From Felis catus (lineage: Eukaryota): DNA of 64,000 nt. Position numbers and translations under genes: made by a program. Positions 1,811 to 64,000 of the stretch are shown piece by piece. The notes beneath the pieces were generated by a model. The model made no database searches. It was not told the origin of the DNA and saw only the letters and a program-made list of their open reading frames with translations. Position 1 is the stretch's first letter; each line of letters starts with the position of its first letter. The stretch covers positions 63,862,001-63,926,000 of the forward strand of contig NC_058368.1 of assembly GCF_018350175.1 (NCBI RefSeq), in the 5' to 3' direction.

Positions 1811-4540
1811 AATTACTACCACAAAAAACTTTTTTTTTTAAAGTCTGTAAGGGTTTAGAAACATAATTTCCAACAGTAAAAGTCCTAATTTGTATTTTTA
1901 AATAGATAATCAGTTTTTCACATCTCTTACCTATGCACTATTAGTAGAGATTCAGCTGGTTGCATTCAAATTACTTTAGAATAGCTATTCAATTCAATTT
2001 TAATACCTATCAAAATTGAGTTTAAGGTGAATTGTACACACTAGTGCACTCTAATTAAAGTATGTTATTGAGATAACTAATACCTCATCACTTCCTCTAT
2101 ACACTTTCACATTTATCTGCATCTGTAGAATTAAAGCATAATAAATTAATCATATGTTTTTAGGTACCTCAATGATATTCTTTCACATGAATTGAAAGGC
2201 AAATTAAAATAGTAGCCTGCATTATTTCTGGTAAGGCACTAATTTTGTTCTTTTTTATACAGTTTCCTAAAAATCACTGTTATATGATTTTGTATAATAG
2301 AGATTGTAAGGCAAGTAGGGTTGAGGCAACACATTACTCTCTCAAGGCTGCATCCTTGATATGGTTCCTACTGTGGGGATAATGGAGAAAATGTACATTC
2401 CAAGGACAGGGGAGAGGGTTAGGATGCTCCAAATGTCTGGGTCCAGCTCACATGTCAGCCTACAGTCATGTCCTCTCAATGACCACCTCCAACGTTCCCC
2501 AAGATGGTGTTATCTCTGAGGCAAACTTTTTTTTTTTTTTATGAGCTTTCATTCATGTGTATTTTTGCATTTGACTGCCACAGAATAAAAGGCTATGACT
2601 CAAGGTTATAAATCAACCACCTATGGACACATTTTATGGGTAGTCATTGAAAGTACATCCATAATATATTTAAAGATACCATTTTAACCTTTGCCTAATT
2701 TTTATTTAACTTATGTAGAGAGATAGTGTTTAACTTGGGATTAGTATGTTATTCAAATGGACTCATTCTTCTGAGAAGTAAAACCGAAGTTCCACATGAG
2801 AAAATGGAAAGGCGTAAGAATTAAATTAGTAATAATTGAAGGGGAAAGATACAAGTTTCCAGGGTAAAAGACATCTCAGAAAAAGTCCAATCATAGTGGG
2901 CCAACCAGAAGTAGAAAAACCTATAAGCTAATAAAGAAGGAAAGGAAGATTTCATGAGATCACGAGAGGCCATCCAATCCAAGTCATCATCGTATGCAAA
3001 GATCACGTCAGAACGTTTTACCTGCTTAACTCTGCACGCTAGGTAGTGATAGGGAGGTTGCTGTGACAGAATGGTGGCAGTAGTATGTAGCCGTAATTAG
3101 TGGGTTCTCCTCCCAGTACGAGGCCCATTGAGTTCTTTTCAGATGTGGAAAGAGGCAAACGTTTTTTGGCCAGAGAGGTAAGCCAAAGGTTCTATTGTCC
3201 AGTGATTTTCTCCTCAAATACATGCTATAGTATATAGAGATAGTTCTATAACATGGTTGGCCTCTGCTGGTAAGAATTTTCTTCACATGCTTGATTAGAT
3301 CTGAATCCTTTATCTTTTGGAGATTTGCCCCCTGCACTTGTGGATCATGGGGGCAGGGGAGGTCCAGTTTGGCCCTTTGATAATGTCTCTGGAGCTTGAA
3401 ATGATTTCCAGTGGTGAGGGTCAGTCATGACCCAGGTACCTCATATGAGGTAAGCCTAAATATTTTTAAGAAACACATTAGACAACAAGCTTGTATAATT
3501 TAAAGATCAATATTTCCTAAGGCTTTGGTATTGCATCCAGTGTTGCATGATTAATTTGTGCTTTTATCTATGTGAGAAAGATTATAGTCTGATTTTCTTG
3601 TGAATAAGTACTGTTAACCATGATGGTTTATTTCTACCTAATTTCCTAAGAGAGGAATAATTATTAAATGTCTTGTGAAGATCTGAAGGCCTATAAAGGG
3701 AAATCTGGACAAAGATCTCCTGGAACAGTGGTGCATCATGCTTGTGGATAGTTCTAGGTGTTTGAAAATTCACGGTACCATAGATTGTAATGTTCTGAAG
3801 ATAGGGACTAAGTCTTGGACATCTTAAATTTCAGATATTTGAAGGCTATTATTATTATTATTTTTTGCCTGTTTTCCTGACATCTTCTTTCCAGACTATT
3901 CATTCCTGTTTTATTCAATTCTTTATGGGCTTTCCTGTTAGGATCACTGTTTTAATTACACAACTCTGTCTGGCTCTTCTGGAGAACTTGCTGACTCAAG
4001 ATGGAGTTAGCCAGACAGGAGGAAGCTTGGGGGTATTGGTGATGGATACTGGGCATGGATCTTTTCATTTTCTCACCGTCCCAGTCACATGCTCCTCCTT
4101 CTTCAGGGATCTGGCATCTGGAAGATTCCTGCCTGTGGCCTCAGGCCTCTGCCAAACGCACTTTTTCTGGAAAACAAATAATGGAAGGGCAGGTTTCCAA
4201 ACCTTTAATTTCTTCCTCATTCAGTTTTTGTGTCATGTGTGCATTTGCTTTGTTAAGTTATTGATGTTTCTCTGAGCGAACAGAGCTTTTATATCAATAA
4301 CATGAGCTTTTGTCTCCTGGGAATACGAGGGTTTTAATAATACCCAGTGATTTTTAAAAAAATGTTCTGAAGCATTTTTGATTGAATTTTGAAGTGTGTA
4401 ACTGTTCATATGCATCACTGATATTTTTGGGTGGTTTGGAATAATTCTCCATCTCAAATGGAATAAATTCTCTCTAAATTGGACACTGTATAAAACCATA
4501 TTTCCTTTTATTGATTAAGTTCAAGAAGTATATGATATTT

Positions 4541-4750
4541 TTTAAAATTTTTAATGTTTTTATTTATTCTTGAGAGAGAGAGAGAGAGAGCGAGAGAGCA
4601 CAAGCAGGGGAGGGGCAGAGAGAGAGGGAGACACAGAATTCCAAGCAGGCTCCAGGCTCTGAGCGGTCAGCGGGGCTCGAACTCACGAGCCATGAGATCG
4701 TGATCTGAGCTGACTCGGACGCTCAACCAACTGAGCCACCCAGGTGCCCC
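4541..4750 (-). mobile_element. Can-SINE (SINEC_Fc-like) inserted in the retrocopy
   Basis: Ends ccacccaggtgcccc, (GA)n and T-tail; TSD atgatattt at 4532-4540 and 4752-4760. Confidence 0.95.
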
Positions 4751-5658
4751 AATGATATTTCTGCAGGAATTGTTGCCTCTCCCTTTCTGAGTGTTTTCTG
4801 AATATAGCAAAGCTTTCTTGATTGGAAATTTTTCAAATGGTTTTTAAGTGCATGGATTATCTTAGCCTCTGCAGTTAATTTTGTGTATGCTTGTGTTCCT
4901 CGAGAGTTTGTAAACCGGTACTAAACTCAGTCCCCGTAAATCAACAATCTTTTGGCTTCACCAATTAAAAAGTCTCCATTTTCTGATGTGTCCATTATAT
5001 CCAATTTCATGATTGCACAATCCATGCTGTCTTCCTCAAGAACAGCAGCCCAATTGCTCATCTCTAGCCAACTGTTCACCTAGAGGCTTGATCTGACTCT
5101 CTTTATTATTAAGGACTCACTCCATGGGCAGACTTTTATATTATTTTTTTCTCTTTAGTAAATTTCCCCACTCTCTGCTTCTGTTTTTGAGATTCGCATG
5201 AAAGCAATTTTACGCTTTTCCGAAGACTAGAATTTACCTCTAAAGGTTTTGTTAGTGCTGTCTGAAGCTTTTCTCCATTCTTTGGCTGGATTGTGAAGGC
5301 TGTTTTGGTTGCCACTTTGCTGAGTTAGCTTTGATGCTCCTTCGAAGGAGTTAGTCTTGCTTATAATGTCAACCATCATCTGAACTTGTAACCATTTATA
5401 TTTTTCTCTTTTCCAATGCTTCCTAGAAGTACCTGGTTTAAGTTCAAGTAAAGAATGGTAGCTTCCTAGCTCTTTATTCGTGGTCTTCATGTTTACTATG
5501 TCCTATAGAAAGTTTTAAAGTTTGCTTCCAAAATAGTTGATTTAAGGTCTCCAAACTCTTTTACAAAGTGACAAATATTCTCAACTTGATATTTTTTCTC
5601 CAGAGGGACAGACATTCCAGTGGCCATTACTTTGTTTCACCTTGCATAAAAACAAAAG

Positions 5659-5856
5659 GTTTTTTTTTAAGTTTATTTATTTTTGAGACAGAGAGCACAA
5701 GCAGGGGAGGGGCAGAGAGAGAGGAGGGCAGAGGATCTGAAGTGGGCTCCACGCTGACAGCAGCGAGCCCGATGCCGGGGCTTGAACTCACAAACCATGA
5801 GATCACGACCTGAGCCAAAGTCGGTCGCTTAACCAACTGAGCCACGCAGGCACCCC
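5659..5856 (-). mobile_element. Can-SINE inserted in the retrocopy
   Basis: Typical tRNA-derived head (aggcacccc) and tttatttattttgaga tail; degenerate TSD cataa.aacaa. Confidence 0.95.
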
Positions 5857-7794
5857 ATAACAACAAGTTTTAACCACGAACACCCCCATCCTGACTGTAA
5901 CAACCACCACGTGTCACAGTGTTCCCTGGGCTGCTGCACCTGGTACAACCCCCACTGCTGGGCCTGGAGCCTCCAAGATCAACATTGCACCGAGCACTGT
6001 GGCCGTCAGTGGAACTTCTGTGGACCCAAAGGCCATTAATGGCACACCTCAGGTTGCCATGACTCTGTGGCCACAACATAGCACACAGCTCTGAATTGAC
6101 AGTTCTGCCCAGAATGTCTTGAGTGCCTAAAGCCCAGGGCAGACCTCAATGGAGGTGGTGGAAGGGACAAACAAGTGTCTACCACACTTTGCCACATCTT
6201 AACCCACAAAGACAATGGTCATATCACATGGCCCTGGTGGTATAGACTATGGTCTGTAGGCTGGGGCAATTGCTTAGCAGCTCTGGGCATCTGAGACCTT
6301 CCCTGGCTGCCCCAAGAACTACGCAGGGAAATGTCTCTCCATATCTGTAATTATTCTTATTTGGGAGGCTGCACAGTGGAGGGTTGCATGTCTCCATGGC
6401 CACTTCTATAAACTTTTCATTTTGTGTCTTTGAAGACCTAATCCAGCTGATGATCAGAAAAGAGTCTCTCAGGGCTCCCCTTGGAATGTTTCTAGGTGGC
6501 CTTGAATGTGTGTGGGCAAGCATGTGAGATGTATTAGGAGAGGCTCTGGGTAGGGTCTCTTCCATTTTCACATTTAACAACTAAGGAAAAAATAAGAGGA
6601 CTTTTCAAAGTCTTCCATCTCAGGAATGTTCAATCTAACCATGGGATGTTTTGCTCGTCTCCCATTTTTCTCCTGGGACTGTGCCCTTAGGGCCTGCATG
6701 GACAAGGATGGCTGGAGGCTGACGTCTGACTCTTCAACAGCTGTCATTTGAGAAAGGTAGAATCTCCCACTTTAAAAACTGAAGCTTCTGGCTTCCTTCT
6801 TCTATTTTCAGGCACTCTGTGTGTTCATTTGGAGACTAGAATAAGCAGATGAGACACTGTTGCAATTACTACTGCAACTATTGTAAAACCACCAAGGCAA
6901 ATGAAAACAGGGATAGAAATAGAAAGCCCCATCCAGTGCATGGTGGATAGAAGAGGGTCAGTGTTAACCTATGTCCTAAATTCTTCAATGACCTTTGAGC
7001 TGTCTCTGTCTGTATGATATGGACAGTCTGATTTGAAGAAGATCTCACCTTACTCCATCAATCAGCAGTCGATGTGATACTGGGTACCACACCGGGCAAG
7101 GCCCTGTGATTGTCAAGGTGACCTCCAGGTTTGATCTAGGGGTAGGAAACCTTTACAATCCAAGTGGATAGAGAAGGATTGTAACTGGATTCTCCCATAT
7201 TGCCAAACGCTATGTAGTTATAATCCCCCTCAATAAAGTAGTATGTCTAAAAAATATATCCAAAAAATTAAAAGAAGGCAAAACATTACCCTGTACTGTT
7301 TTGATAGTTTAATAGGACAAACCACCTGAGTCATCACTAGGTATAAGTAAGTTTTTCTTTTTTACTTACTGTTTTTCTCACTATAAAGGCCATACTATTC
7401 TCTGTAAAGTTAGATATCAATTTGCAGAAGATTAATACATTGTAAATAATTTTTGCCCTATTGAATTACAAGTTATTTTTTTTCTGATTGAGAAAAACCC
7501 CAAAAAGCCATTATTTTATTTACCTGAAAAGTATTAACCTTATCTTTTATTATTATAACATTAGAATAATATTCTACTGTTCTTTTTTTCAGTGACCATA
7601 ATGCTAATCTCTTTCCAGCAGCTTTATTGCTGTGTTTATTCCCTCATTAAGGAATTGAACAAGCCTTTCGCAATAGCTCTTTATATATTAGCTTTAGAGG
7701 CATATTTTTTATCTTTTTGAAAATTATACTTTAATGCATCGAGAAAAAAAGACACTGAAAACATTATTGCTTATAATGGGCAATTTTTTTTTTT

Positions 7795-16720: not shown

Positions 16721-19700
16721 TCTTCTTTATCCATTCATCAGCTGATGGACATTTGGACTCTTTTCCATAATTTGGCTATTGTCAATAGTGCTACTATAAA
16801 CACTGGTGTACTTGTGCCCCTTTGTATCAGCGCTCCCGTGTCCTTTGGATAAATTCCTAGTAGTGCAACTGGTGGGTGGTAGGGTATTTTTAAATTTTTA
16901 TTAAATTCTATTTTTAATTTTTTGAGGGAACTCCACACTAGTTTCCAGATTGGCTGCACCAGTTTGCATTCCCACCAAAGGTGCAAGAGGGTTCCCCTTT
17001 CTCCACACCCTCGCCAACATCTGTTGTTGCCTGGGTTAATTTTAACCACTCTGACCGGTGTGACATGGTATCTCAATGTGGATTTGATTTCTATTTCCCT
17101 GATGTTGAGCGATGTTGGGTATCTTTTCATGTGTCTGTTGGCCATCTGGATGTCTTTGTTGGAAAAGTGTCTATGTATGTCTTCTGCCCATTTCATCACT
17201 GGATTATTTATTTTTTGGGTGTTGAATTTGATAAGTTCGTTAGATTTTGAAACTAACCCTTTACCTGATATGTCATTTGTAAATATCTTCTCCCATTCCA
17301 TTGGTTTCCTTTTAGTTTTGTTGATCACTTCCTTTGTTCTGCGTAAGCTTTTTATCTTGATGAGTTCCCAATAATTCATCCTTGCTTTTATTTCCCTTGC
17401 CTTCAGAGACATGTCAAGTAAGAAGTTGCTTTGGCTGAGGTCAAAGAGGTTTCTGCCTGCTTTCTTTTGTAGGATTTTGATGGTTTCCTGTCTCAAATTT
17501 AGGTTTTTCATCATTTTGAATTTATTTCTGTGTATGGTATAAGGAAGTGGTCCAGTTTTATTCTTCTGCATGTTGCTGTCCAGTTCTCCCAGGACCATTT
17601 GCTAAAGAGACTGTCTTTTTTTCCATTGGATACTCTTTCCTGCATTGTTGAAGATTGGTTGGCCATATATTTGTGAGTCCATGAGTCCATTTCTGGGTTC
17701 TCTATTCTGTCCCATCGATCTATGTGTCTGTTTTTGTGCCAATACCACACTGTCTTAATGACTATAGCTTTGTAATACAGGCTAAAGTCTGGGACTGTGA
17801 TGCCTCCTGCTTTGGTTTTCTTTCTCAACATTATTTTGGTTGCTCGGGGTCTTTGGTGGATCCATACAAATTTTAGGATTGTTTGTTCTAGATCTGTGAA
17901 GAATGCTGGTGCTATTTTGATTGGGATTCCACTGAATGTGTAGATCGCTTTGGGTAGTATCAACATTTTAACAATATTTGTTCTCCCAATCCATGAGCAT
18001 GGAATGTTTTTCCATTTCTTTGTGTCTTCTTCAATTTCTTTCATAAGCTTTCTATATTCTTTTACCACTTTGGTTAGATTTATTCCTAGGTATTTTATGG
18101 AGTTCGATGCAATTGTAAATGGGATCAATTCCTTGATATCTCCTTCTGTTGCTTCATTATTGGTAGATACAAATGCAACCAATTTCTGTACATTGATTTT
18201 ATATCCTGCGACTTTGCGGAATTTATGTATCAGCTCTAGCAGTTTTTTGGTGGAGTCTTTGAGTTTTCGATGTAGATGATCATCTGTGAAAAGTGAAGTT
18301 TGACTTCTTCTTTGCTTTTTATTTTGTTTTGTTGTTGATTGCTGAGGCTAGGACTTCCAACACTGTTAAACAACAGTGGTGAGAGTGGACATCCGTGTTG
18401 TGTTCCTGATTTCAGGGAGAAAGCTCTCAGTTTTTTTCCATTGAGGATGATATTAGCTGTGGGCATTTAATATATGGCTTTTATGATATTAAGGTATGTA
18501 CCTTCTATCCTGACTTTCTTGAGGGTTATGCTGTATATTGTCAAATGATTGTTCTGCATCTGTTGACAGGACCATGTGGTACTTATCCTTTCTTCTTTTA
18601 ATGTGATCTATCATGTTGATTGATTTGCAAATACTGAACCAGCCATGCAGCCCAGGAATGAATCCCACTTGATCATGGTGAATAATTCTTTTAATATACT
18701 GTTGAATTTAATTTGCTGGTATCTTTTTGAGAATTTTTATATCCATGTTCATCAGGGATATTGGCCTGTAATTCTCCTTTTCAGTGGGGTCTTTGGTTTT
18801 GGAATCAAGGTAATACCGGCTTCATAGAATGAGTTTGGAAGTTCTCCTTCCATTTCTATTTTTTGGAACAGCTTGAGAAGAATAGGTATTAACTCTGCTT
18901 TAAATGTCTGGTAGAATTGCCTTGGGAAGCCATCTGGCCCAAGACTCTTATTTGTTGTGAGATTTTTGATAACTGATTCAATTTCTTCACTGGTTATGGG
19001 TCTAATCAAATTTTCTATTTCTTCCCCTTTGAGTTTTGGTAGTGTGTGAGTGTCTATGAATTTGTCCATTTTTTCCAGACTGTCCAATTTGTTGGCATAT
19101 AATTTTTCATAGTGTTCTTTGATAACTGTATTTCTGTGGTGTTGGTTGTGATCTCTCCTCTTTCATTTGTGATTTTATCGATTTTGGTCCTCTTTCAAAA
19201 AACCAGTTCTTAGATTCTTTGAGCTGTTGTAGTGTTTTGTTTTGTTTTGTTTTTGGATTATGTATTGTTTATTTCTGCTCTAATCGTTTTTATTATTTCT
19301 CTTCTTCTGCTGGCTTTGGGCTTTCTTTGCTGCTGCCTTTCTAGTTTCTTTAGGTGTGAGGTTAACTTATATATTTGAGGGCTTTCTTGCTTTTTGAGAT
19401 GGGGCCTAGATTGCAATGTATTTTCCTCTTAGGACTGCCTTTGCTGCATCTTAATGGGTTTGGACTGTTGTGTTTTCATTTCATTTGCTTCCATATATTT
19501 TTTAATTTCTTCTTTAATTTCCTGGTTGACTCATTCATTCTTTAACCTGGGACATTCTTTAACCTCCATGTATTTGGGGGCTTTTCAAATATTTTCTTGT
19601 GGTTGATTTCAAGTTTCATAGGATTGTGATCTGAAAATATGCATGGTATGATCTCAATCTTTTTATGATTATTAAGGGCTGTTTTGTGACCCAGTATGTG

Positions 19701-21966
19701 ATCTATTTTGGAGAATGTTCCATATGAACTCAAGAAGAATGTTTATGTATTTTTCTGCTTTTGGTTGAAAAGTCTGAATATATCTGTTAAGTCCATCTGG
19801 TCTAATGTGTCATTCAGAGCCCTTATCTCCTTATTGATTTTCTGCCTAGATGACCTGTCCATTGTTGTAAGTGGAATATTAAACTTCCCTACAATCACAG
19901 CATATTATCTATACATTTCTTTATGTTTGTAATTAATTTATTTATACATTTGGGTGTCTTCACATTGGGTACATAAACATTTATAATTGTTAGCTCTTCT
20001 TGACGGATAGACCCCTTAATTATGACATAATGCCCTTCTTCATCTCTTATTACAGTCTGTTTTCAAATCTAGTTTGTGATATAAGTATGGCTACTCTGGC
20101 TTTCTTTTGACATCCAGTCGCATGATAGATGGTTCTCCATCCCCTCACTTTCAATCTCCAAGTGTCCTCAGGTCTAAAATGAGTTTCTTGTAGGCAGCAT
20201 ATAAATGGATCTTGTTTTATATCCATTCTGATACCCTATATCTTTTTATTGGGGCAGTCAGTCCATTTATATTCAGAATAATTATTGAAAGATATGATTT
20301 AGTGTCATTGTTTTATCTGTTGATTTCATGTCTGTGGTGATGTCTGTGGTCCTTTGTAGTCTTTGCTGCTTTCCACTCACGGAGTTCCCCTTAGGATCTC
20401 CTGCAGGGCTGGTTTAGTGGTCATGAATGCCTTTAGTTTTTGTTTGTCTGGGAAAGCTTTTATCTCTCCTTCTATTCTGAATGACAGCCTTGCTGGATAA
20501 AGGATACTTGGCTGCATATTTTCCTATTCAGCACATTGAATATTTCCTGCCACTCCTTTCTGGCCTGCCAAGTTTCAGTAGATAGGTCTGCTACTACCCT
20601 TATGTGTCTGCCCTTGTAGGTTAAGGCCCATTTGTCCCTAGCTGCTTTCAGAATTCTCTCTTTATCTTTGTATTTTGCCAGTTTCACTATGATCGGCCAC
20701 GGTGTTGACCTGTTTTTGTTAATTTTGAAGGGAGTTCTCTGTGCCTCTTGGACTTGGATGCCTGTTTCCTTCCCCAGATTAGGGAAGCTATAATGTGTTC
20801 AAATAAACCTTCTTCCCCTTTCTCTCTCTTCTTCCTCTTCTTCTGGAACTCCTATGATATGGATATTATTTTGTTTCATTGAATCACTTAGGTCTCTAAT
20901 TCTCCCCTTGTGGTCTAGTAATTTCCTTTCACTCTTTTATTCAGCTTCAGTTAACATAATTTTATCTTCTATTACCTATTCTCTCCTCTGCTTCTTTCAT
21001 CCTTGCTGTCACTGTATCTAGTTTATTTTGCATCTCCTTTATAGCATTTCTTTCTTCTTTTGTGTTTATTTATTTTTAAGAGAGAGACAGAGCACAAGCA
21101 GGGGATGGGAAGTGAAAGAGGGAGACACAGAATCTGAAGCAGGCTCCAGGCTCTGAGCCATCAGCACAGAGCCCGATGCGGGCCTTGAACTCACAGACCA
21201 CGAGATCATGACCTGAGCCGAAGTCAGATGCTTAACCGACTGAGCCACCCAGGTGCCCCTCATTATAGCATTTCTTCATTCATTGTGACTATTTCTTAGG
21301 TCTTTTATCTCTATAGCAATAGATTCTCTGCTGTCTTTTATGCTTTTTTTTCAAGCCCAGCTATTAGTCTTACGATTTTTATTCTAGATTCTTGTTCAGA
21401 TATACTGTTTATATCTCTTTTGAGCAATTCTCTGGCTGTAATTTCTTCTAGATTTTCTTTTGAGGAGATTTCATCCATTTCATCATTTTGGCTAGGTTTC
21501 TGTCTTTTGCATGATTTAATAGCTTGTGTTATGTCCTATACCTGTGGGTACTACTATATTAAAAAGAGGTCATATGCTGTCCAAGGCCTGGCACTTCAGT
21601 AAGTGATTTTGGAGTGTGTTATGTACACTCTGTTGTTGCATATTTGGCTGCTCTATCCCACGGGTCAATTCTCTACAAAGCTTCTTCTTGCTCCTAATGG
21701 AGGATTGTTTGGACCTTCCACCAGATGTGCTTTGATTTGTTTGTTGAAATAACCCTGGAAAAAAGGAAAGGGCAGGGAGCATGATCCTATACAAAGAGAA
21801 AAATGAAAGGGATGGAAAAAAAAAAGACCAAGTAGAGAATGAAAGAAACTATAAGGCTTAACTCAGAGAGAGAATAAGTAAAATAAAGAAAAAGGAGATA
21901 TAGAGAAGGTATAAAAAGAATAGAGCAAAAATGGGGCAAGCATTAAACAAACAAAACAGAGAAAGG

Positions 21967-38000: not shown

Positions 38001-38134
38001 ATCAATAAGATTTGTGGCCGTCCAATCAGAACACCTACACAAAGCCCCCGTTGTTCTTTTGAGGGAAGCAAAGAGAAGCATGGGATGAAGATCTCTCCAA
38101 GAAATGGTGAAGAGACACTTGCCAACAGAAGAAA
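38001..38134 (+). CDS. GPC5: Glypican-5 internal coding exon (human exon 4 equivalent), 134 bp, phase 0 to phase 2
   Basis: Acceptor ttttctctttgcaag| and donor AA|gtaaga. Translates INKICGRPIRTPTQSPRCSFEGSKEKHGMKISPRNGEETLANRR(K), matching recalled human GPC5 VNRICGRPVRTPTQSPRCSFDQSKEKHGMKTTTRNSEETLANRRK. Confidence 0.97.
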
Positions 38135-38314
38135 GTAAGACATTTGTTTTACAACCAGAAAGAGAAAAGAAAGTAAGCCATTAATTTTCAACAGAATAGA
38201 ATGTATTCAATTAAGTAGAACCAAATACACTATTGAAGAAAAAAAGATCACCATTAATTACTTTTAAAACTCAGCAGTTGCTCCTATTCAGTTAATTAGG
38301 AAGATAAGTACAAC

Positions 38315-60388: not shown

Positions 60389-60514
60389 GGAATTTATCAA
60401 CAGCCTTAGACTGTACAGGACGTTCTATGGAGGCCTGGCTGATGAGCTCTGCGTTAATGAATTAGCTGCTGCCGATGGACTACCATGCTGGGACGGGGAG
60501 CATATAGTAAAAAG
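60389..60514 (+). CDS. GPC5: Glypican-5 internal coding exon (human exon 5 equivalent), 126 bp, phase 2 to phase 2
   Basis: Acceptor ttttcccattcag| and donor AAG|gtattt. Translates (K)EFINSLRLYRTFYGGLADELCVNELAAADGLPCWDGEHIVK(S), matching recalled human EFINSLRLYRSFYGGLADQLCANELAAADGLPCWNGEDIVKS. The AA from the upstream exon plus G gives Lys in frame. Confidence 0.97.
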
Positions 60515-61994: not shown

Positions 61995-62843
61995 TTTTAA
62001 TTTTATATTTTATTTTTTAAAATTTACATCCAAATTAGTTAGCATATAGTGAAACAATGATTTCAGGAGTAGATGCCTTAATTCCCCTTACCCATTTAGC
62101 CCATCCCCCCTCCCACAACCCCTCTAGCAACCCTCAGTTTGTTCTCCATATTTATGAGTCTCTTCTGTTTTGTCTCCCTCCCTGTTTTTATATTATTTTT
62201 ACTTCCCTTCCCTTATGTTCATCTGTTTTGTCTCTTAAAGTCCTCATATGAGGAAGTCATATGATTTTTGTATTTCTCTGACTAATTTCACTTAGCATAA
62301 TACCCTCCAGTTCCATCCACGTAGTTGCATATGGCAAGATTTCATTCTTTTTGATTGCTGAGTAATACTCCATTGTGTATATATATATATGTTTATATAT
62401 ATATGTGTGTGTATGTGTGTATGTGTATATATATATACACACACACACATACACACACCACATCCTCTTTATCCATTCATCCATCGATGGACATTTGGGC
62501 TCCTTCCATACTTTGGCTATTGTTGATAGTGCTGCTATAAACATGGGGGTGCATGTGTCCCTTTGAAACAGCACACCTGTATCCCTTGGATAAATGCCTA
62601 GTAGTGCAATTGCTGGGTCATAGGGTAGTTCTATTTTTAGTTTTTTGAGGAATCTCCGTACTGTTTTCCAGAGTGGCTGCTCCAGGTTGCATTCCCACCA
62701 ACAATGCAAAAGAGCTCCCCTTTCTCTGCATCCTCGCCAACATCTGTTTTTGCCTGAGTTGTAAATGTTAGCCATTCTGACAGGTGTGAGGTGGTATCTC
62801 ATTGTGGTTTTGATTTCTATTTCCCTGATGATGAGTGATGTGG
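61995..62843 (-). mobile_element. 5'-truncated felid L1 (end of ORF2 plus 3'UTR)
   Basis: ORF 62257-62916 contains the L1 ORF2 C-terminus ([24 protein letters not shown]...CWRGC...[16 protein letters not shown]); TSD agaatgtatttttt / agaatatatttttt. Confidence 0.95.
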
Positions 62844-64000
62844 AATTGAGAATATATTTTTTTTTCTTGAGAATATATTTTTTAAAATTTGTATTTCTTG
62901 CCTTTACTGAGAGCACTTACAGTATGTAGAACTTTGAGTTCTTACAGTCTTCATGCCAGTGAAAGTTCTATCACTTAGGTCTAGTAATTAAATTATACTT
63001 TGACTTGTGCTATCTCTTTTTACCTTGTGCAAACTGGAAGGGAGGTTTTTTGTGTGTATTAACAATTTTTCTACAAAGAGTAATGAGAATCCCATGGGGA
63101 TTAATGAAAGATTTAGTATATTATATAAGTATATATAATATATTACATTACATTATATCATGTCATTCTAGAGCCCCAAGAACCTTAGTTTCAGTTTGTT
63201 CCACTCTTCTCCACTATTTGGGCTGGGGTTTGTATAATAAGAAATACTGTTGGGGAAATCAGTGATTTGGAAAAACTTTTTAGAGGGATAGTATTTTCAA
63301 CTCAAAGAATGTATTTTCTTCTATATTGTATATTTCTTAAGACTTCATTCATGGCTTAAGAATTTTTAAAAAAGCTCATATTTAGCAAGAATTCTCTATA
63401 GAAAGTGTCTACATTTCTGATAAAGGAAGTGATTCTCATTACTCTCATTTGTTTCCAGCTCATTCTCCCCTTCCCTGCATCACCCAGCCTCTTGTCTGTC
63501 AGCTACTTCCAAGTGCACTGTTCCACATCACTCTCCTGAGAACAGCTTGCACTTTGCTTTAATCTTTTCTCAAACACCCCTTCTACCTCATGACCATAAC
63601 TGCCATTTTCTTCTCCTTGAGAATATTTCCTCTGGTCCATCCCAATCTCATAGGTCCCCAATCTACTTCCACTCCTCTTGGCTCCCCTGGCATCAGGCAA
63701 GCCTCCCACACTGGCTCTCTACCACCATCTCCAGGCTGCTTCCAAATATTCTTAAGCCCTGATTATTTTCTAGCAGACAAGGTTTTATAAGCATTATCTC
63801 ATTTAATTCTCCTAAAACTTTACTCCTTAGTGCTCCAAAATAAGCTGACTGGGTGGCATCTCTTTTCTGTTTGATTTTGAGAAAACTCTCATGCGTATTT
63901 GAATTTTTTAAAAAAATATATATCATTTAAATTATATTTTTATTTGTGGCTCAGCCAATTCTTGATATAAATATTCAACAGGATTATTTTGTCTTCAATA

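Follow-up and report, generated by a model that had tools for sequence, protein, structure and literature searches.

We here deal with a window of 64,000 nucleotides of Felis catus DNA (assembly GCF_018350175.1, contig NC_058368.1, positions 63,862,001 to 63,926,000 of the forward strand; positions below count from its first letter) and with an element on its minus strand that belongs to the cTAGE5 (MIA2) family. Two plus-strand exons of the window match positions 330-371 and 379-419 of the Pfam Glypican profile; being short pieces, both remain below the curated cut-off. We take them to be exons 4 and 5 of GPC5. Other glypican exons were not seen among the open reading frames (ORFs) of at least 100 amino acids in the window. 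With both exons on the plus strand and at higher coordinates than the element, the latter lies in antisense orientation within the intron that precedes exon 4, which agrees with the GPC5 position proposed in an earlier note on this DNA. The alignments described below show the element, henceforth the felid copy, to be an old processed copy of the cTAGE5 family. It is the only cTAGE5-derived copy within the 64 kb.

The alignments were frameshift-aware and made with both short interspersed nuclear elements (SINEs) taken out of the felid copy. Against named MIA2/cTAGE5 proteins, the parents, it scored 296-366 in ten of ten cases, with identities of 33-37%. The controls comprised three queries, i.e., P0152 and P0051 (two diverged relatives discussed below) and a primate CTAGE copy. 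With 15 shuffles each, the top scores were 46-52, and the opposite strand yielded 36-38. The colinear alignment that the earlier note had predicted was thus obtained. Threaded in the frame of the diverged relatives, the DNA agreed with the codon profile of the parent all along and gained +315 bits in register over 454 codons; displaced by 1-2 nt, it scored -411 to -484. Residues 1-27 of the parent found their best of 460 ungapped placements at 6021, with a score of 16 versus 3 for the runner-up. The position of Met1, the transmembrane segment (TM), both coiled-coil regions and the AFG motif follow each other as in the parent and in its frame. About 480 codons fill about 1440 nt without the SINEs, which means that introns are missing across a span that is multi-exon in the parent. 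The intronless layout had been noted before, and every peptide then quoted is indeed present in the minus-strand frames; the distance of about 1500 nt from ATG to AFGR, SINEs removed, becomes about 1480 nt by the alignment coordinates. Pfam, run on 10 single-frame fragments and three read-through frames of the felid copy, revealed nothing at cut-off. A PDB sequence search had 0 matches, and the ESM Atlas, asked with a 91-residue fragment, returned no usable match.

The borders had to be redrawn. The ATG formerly proposed as the start lies 5' of the Met1 position, now an ACA, and meets a stop after three codons (Table 1). Upstream, from 6060 to 6400 on the minus strand, the parent N-terminus finds no fit. 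At the other end the protein alignment stops near 4120-4140 and not at 3450, as had been claimed: the tails of seven of seven proteins tried against 4200-3300 did no better than shuffles. The tentative 3' remainder cannot be aligned to the parental Pro-rich tail. It contains ATTAAA at 3956, AATAAA at 3915 and an A-rich run from 3866. This run is a candidate for a poly(A) remnant; a flanking target-site duplication of the retrocopy itself was not identified at its ends.

The two SINEs are presumably of the feliform type. Once SINE A is removed, the reading frame is continuous. Both SINEs arrived later, or at any rate within a stretch whose frame is continuous around them. The edge of SINE B, previously put at 4760, includes the target duplication; the body begins at 4750. 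Further copies of at least 100 nt that resemble SINE A and SINE B number 16 and 21, respectively, across the window, with a median identity of about 74%.

Diverged relatives with long open frames exist in other genomes. They were sought with one read-through frame of the felid copy in 1.84 billion representative proteins. The majority of the 150 matches listed were SINE-only, and 15 were taken further. After removal of self and SINE matches, the long ones among the matches listed were P0004 (E 3.5e-16) and P0051 (E 4.6e-7); P0046 was dropped as SINE-related. P0004, when used as query, retrieved 10 proteins among 7998 candidates: P0152, P0153 and P0051 as close ones, and six of the cTAGE family at 26-30% identity. 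A profile built on P0004, P0051, P0152 and P0153 recovered just these four among 7999 candidates, in a word-based search that can miss members. In the ESM Atlas, P0004 led to TGO1 and MIA2-like clusters at 0.88-0.92, which we consider leads only. Two metagenome scans for the relatives' DNA gave 593 and 134 pattern matches, 0 of them confirmed.

The felid copy is closer to these four proteins than to cTAGE5. It scores 550, 466, 403 and 392 with them, which is above every parent score, and its identity to P0051, P0152, P0153 and P0004 is 36-47%. The four themselves share 29-38% identity with cTAGE5 and have kept the parent frame. An in-frame gap of 11 residues after the TM is common to the felid copy, P0152 and P0004, a gap of 3 residues to the felid copy and all four relatives, and a gap of 2 residues near the end to the felid copy and the three relatives that reach that far. 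Another 2-residue gap, seemingly derived when compared with primate copies, was dropped; it is ancestral, as 9 of 10 parents have it too. The TM hydropathy is 1.8-1.9 in P0152 and P0004 and 1.6 in the felid remnant versus 2.4-2.6 in the parents. The parental tails contain 21% Pro with 3 PPP runs; those of P0051 and P0152 contain 11-12% and no PPP. The tail of P0051 fits better to the isoform that skips a cassette of 43 residues (93 versus 64). Of 117 cTAGE proteins compared, 33 show the skipped join and 73 the 43-residue block; in the felid copy itself the join is weakly resolved (62 versus 55).

P0051 comes from an anteater, Tamandua tetradactyla, and bears the NCBI name 'glypican-5 isoform X2'. 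It joins a Glypican piece (profile positions 43-108) to an open cTAGE-like frame. The model thus consists of an exon-2-like glypican part and about 500 residues of cTAGE-derived frame, and may represent a real transcript in which host and retrogene are fused, or else an annotation error behind which a gene of its own is concealed. P0004 is open for 454 residues, with two or three patches out of register with its relatives, as could result from compensated frameshifts or assembly errors.

In the tree, the felid copy and the four relatives stand on one side of a branch with a support of 100/100. This branch, which separates them from the parents, measures 1.22 changes per site, and the ten boreoeutherian cTAGE5 parents are mutually 86-98% identical. 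The primate CTAGE retrocopies are nested with the human parent on branches of 0.14-0.15. Of course, a pseudo-protein threaded on a relative is biased toward it, and as a control the one of the felid copy was rebuilt on a parent. Its identities then nearly overlapped, with 35-37% to the parents and 37-47% to the lineage. At 85 diagnostic columns, however, it carried the lineage residue in 33, the parent residue in 11 and another one in 41. Contrary to what the earlier note had implied, the felid copy is not a direct descendant of cTAGE5 but carries derived characters of a separate lineage.

Was this lineage ever a gene? P0152 and P0051 share 49% identity across 426 columns, and no block of 25 columns falls below 32%. 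A neutral simulation of 420 codons, with assumed settings for transitions, CpG and indels, showed that at this distance each branch gathers about 9 stops and between 9 and 18 frameshifts; 0 of 400 pairs were free of stops, frameshifts not yet counted. Two frames that stay open at such a divergence, when no neutral pair does, imply that the lineage, fast as it changed, kept coding over a long period. Retention of the frame over long times is a criterion for calling retrogenes functional, according to PMC4772013. A search for a compensated frameshift on the stem of the lineage flagged one block, beside a break in the felid copy, and none elsewhere. The idea of a former retrogene, perhaps intact elsewhere, is thus supported for the lineage, as far as sequences can tell; four relatives with open frames beyond neutral expectation speak for it. 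Either the felid copy itself, for which it had been suggested, or a sister copy may have been the functional one.

The felid copy today is dead: it has no intact frame with a start codon. Relative to P0152 it suffered 12 frameshifts and 4 stops, to which 2 SINEs and the ACA at Met1 add; other references give 3-6 stops and 7-12 shifts. Some of the breaks are old. P0008 (74% identity) and P0022 (70%) read across the shift near 5319 without change of frame, and P0034 (74%) passes four shifts between 4391 and 4163. As these fragments are unbroken there when aligned to the felid copy, the breaks must predate the split from their genomes. Six of the seven fragments that span the shift near 4935 lack it, the seventh being ambiguous. 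A single frame of the felid copy had served to find the short relatives tested (n=12), and this biases them toward shared shifts. In P0006, P0010, P0023 and P0082 the stretch matching 4931-4895 is read in one off-frame register, and the felid copy has that break elsewhere; this register may point to a disablement that the members of another clade have in common. By simulation the number of disablements corresponds to about 0.1-0.25 neutral changes per site, which at mammalian rates would date the death of the felid copy to tens of millions of years ago. Most likely, it is now inert.

Table 1. Features of the felid copy and of its host gene in the 64,000-nt window
Feature	Positions	Strand	Basis
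Decayed coding region without introns, derived from cTAGE5, from N-terminus over TM and coiled coils to AFG motif; two SINEs inside	4120..6021	-	Alignment and codon profile
Codon at the parent Met1 position, now ACA	6019..6021	-	Ungapped placement of parent residues 1-27
ATG of the earlier note; same frame, 13 codons 5' of the parent start position, TGA as codon 4	6058..6060	-	
TM-like remnant; stop at 5916; bears the 11-residue gap common to P0152 and P0004	5857..5928	-	
SINE A with downstream copy of an imperfect target duplication of ~15 nt (upstream copy 5871-5857)	5646..5856	-	
Match to parent post-TM part, first coiled-coil part and start of the second	4751..5645	-	Versus P0152, positions approximate
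Frameshifts therein: 5503, 5319, 5141, 5065, 4935, 4894, 4821; stops 5639, 5119	within 4751..5645	-	Versus P0152, positions approximate
SINE B with downstream copy of a perfect 9-nt target duplication (4760-4752, 4540-4532)	4531..4750	-	
Remainder of second coiled-coil region to AFG motif; stop 4510; frameshifts ~4459, 4391, 4335, 4258, 4163	4120..4530	-	
Possible 3' remainder, tentative; matches the relative's fragment P0034 down to 3959	3860..4119	-	
Host GPC5 exon, edges approximate	38001..38135	+	Pfam Glypican, E 1.3e-3
Host GPC5 exon, AG/GT flanks present	60389..60514	+	Pfam Glypican, E 5.3e-5

How these pieces fit together can be sketched with reasonable, if limited, confidence: the felid copy is probably the dead remnant of an old, fast-changing retrogene that resided in GPC5 before cats and anteaters split and was lost in the cat line. 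A spliced cTAGE5 mRNA without the 43-residue cassette would have been reverse-transcribed and inserted, its processed origin being evident from the alignments. Most likely the insertion hit the GPC5 locus before the two lines parted, presumably with the help of the L1 machinery. The copy would then have been translated and have changed fast, about two thirds of its residues being replaced under conservation of the parent frame, with three in-frame gaps and the loss of the Pro-rich tail. This step is read from the sequences of the lineage, and selection from the retained frame. In the cat line the copy died long ago, collected about 16 disablements, some of them common to relatives at 70-74% identity, and finally received the two SINEs.

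Several observations weigh against this history. In the P0051 model the cTAGE-like frame has the same strand as GPC5 and follows a part that resembles exon 2, while the felid copy is antisense before exon 4; opposite strand and apparently different intron mean that an inversion or a local duplication is needed to relate the two by place. The tree contains no outgroup and no marsupial, xenarthran or afrotherian parent, and root and date are not fixed by it. Therein the four open proteins form a clade to which the felid copy, on a long branch, does not belong, and the tree tool warns of long-branch attraction. None of the relatives spans Met to stop: P0152, P0153 and P0004 begin without Met, P0051 without the TM part. 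P0051 is a predicted gene model, and a source species is assigned for one of the four open relatives. P0004, with its out-of-register patches and a block identity down to 20%, may be decaying. The felid and the Tamandua copy, sharing host gene and lineage, are candidate orthologues only. Two independent landings of so rare a lineage in one gene are, however, unlikely, and a common residence in GPC5 appears to be the simplest reading.

The strongest competitor accepts a functional lineage and regards the felid copy as a secondary duplicate that never worked and arose either by inverted local duplication or by retrocopying of the retrogene; the functional gene would be elsewhere, e.g., in sense orientation after GPC5 exon 2. 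Orientation and intron, which differ from those of the Tamandua model, would be explained that way, as would the branching outside the four open proteins and the out-of-frame stretches in 12 of 12 short relatives tested. Also, retrocopies are very numerous in xenarthrans, as stated in PMC13251070. The shift near 4935, however, is absent from six of the seven spanning fragments, and the 64 kb contain a single copy. The 3-6 stops on a terminal branch of 0.67, compared with about 12 on a similar neutral branch, also disagree with a stillborn duplicate, a weak argument as the aligner can dodge stops. On balance we regard this alternative as rather unlikely.

Far less probable is an ordinary processed cTAGE5 pseudogene that never coded, the open frames elsewhere being due to chance or annotation artefacts. 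Certainly, cTAGE5 is prolific in retrocopies, with 945 proteins of the family at E<=1e-10; breaks can be spanned by gene models that are predicted; and a primate-specific cTAGE5 retrogene is known, as reported in PMC2394760. But the shared stem of 1.22 changes per site kept the parent frame throughout, whereas in the simulation a smaller distance already brings 16 stops on each branch, and sources of two kinds, an NCBI model and metaclust ORFs, provide the long open frames. Hardly any credit can be given to the view that the felid copy persists as a non-coding antisense transcript regulating GPC5 or MIA2. Its antisense position in a host intron would suit such a role. Three sequencing runs recorded as RNA contain part of the stretch, but these are contigs of gut or feline metatranscriptomes and are no evidence for it. 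A protein identity of 33-37% makes the felid copy too distant from the MIA2 mRNA for pairing, its 5' end is CpG-depleted (observed/expected 0.14), and Rfam has 0 matches in the window.

What could the product of such a retrogene have done? According to PMC5572378, cTAGE5 binds Sec12 just after the TM and TANGO1 with the second of its coiled coils. The Pro-rich domains of the cTAGE5/TANGO1 family engage Sec23/24, according to PMC4862334. By alignment, the regions of cTAGE5 that bind Sec12 and TANGO1 appear to have counterparts in the lineage. The product would be a protein with TM and coiled coils, anchored in the endoplasmic reticulum (ER), that could join TANGO1/cTAGE5 complexes without a Pro-rich COPII-binding tail, probably in germ cells, where other single-exon retrogenes provide the analogy. 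Provided the lineage was functional, a coiled-coil subunit of this kind, entering the complexes in germ cells without adding COPII-binding sites, is a tentative possibility. A broader scenario we consider doubtful: a GPC5-resident cTAGE5 retrogene of all placentals would have evolved at about the neutral rate with the frame kept, have lost the Pro-rich tail and still work in xenarthrans, possibly fused to exon 2, by modulating ER exit sites in germ cells; carnivores, and probably other boreoeutherians, would have lost it early.

The closest known system is the short form of cTAGE5/MIA2 (MEA6), the partner of TANGO1 at ER exit sites. The felid copy is colinear with it, in the same frame and 33-37% identical. 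It differs in being intronless, in its 11-residue gap at the TM end, in the lack of a recognisable Pro-rich tail, and by about 16 disablements and two SINEs. The four open relatives share derived lineage and gaps with the felid copy, and P0051 also the host gene; they differ from it by their long open frames, and no source names them cTAGE-derived. A link to SPZ1, a testis gene without introns in which stretches resemble cTAGE5, is conceivable. Primate CTAGE retrocopies (CTAGE2, 8, 9 and 15 types) are likewise mRNA-derived from cTAGE5, and some are intact according to PMC2394760; the felid/anteater lineage is separate from them and far more diverged. Long retention of the frame is a likeness to old testis-biased mammalian retrogenes, as described in PMC4772013.

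Among the papers listed by full-text searches none dealt with a GPC5-resident copy of cTAGE5 or with the lineage; most subscription papers are outside this scope, and the retrogene tables of PMC4772013 might list it. The xenarthran retrocopy paper, PMC13251070, does not contain MIA2, CTAGE or GPC5 in its text and two readable supplements. The lineage thus appears to be an unnamed, old, fast-evolving family of cTAGE5-derived retrogenes with long open frames in other genomes. If so, an old mammalian gene would have been missed by annotation or misfiled as a glypican isoform. It would be a natural cTAGE5 variant without Pro-rich tail, which could help to tell what the TM and the coiled coils contribute by themselves at ER exit sites, and a datable case of birth, fast change and lineage-specific loss of a retrogene.

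Some minor features may be added. Two stop-free stretches on the minus strand, 3029-3424 and 6227-6580 (132 and 118 codons), flank the felid copy on its strand, probably by chance. Broken-frame fragments at 16741-21300 and 62260-62916, also on the minus strand, are LINE-1 ORF1/ORF2-like and ordinary.

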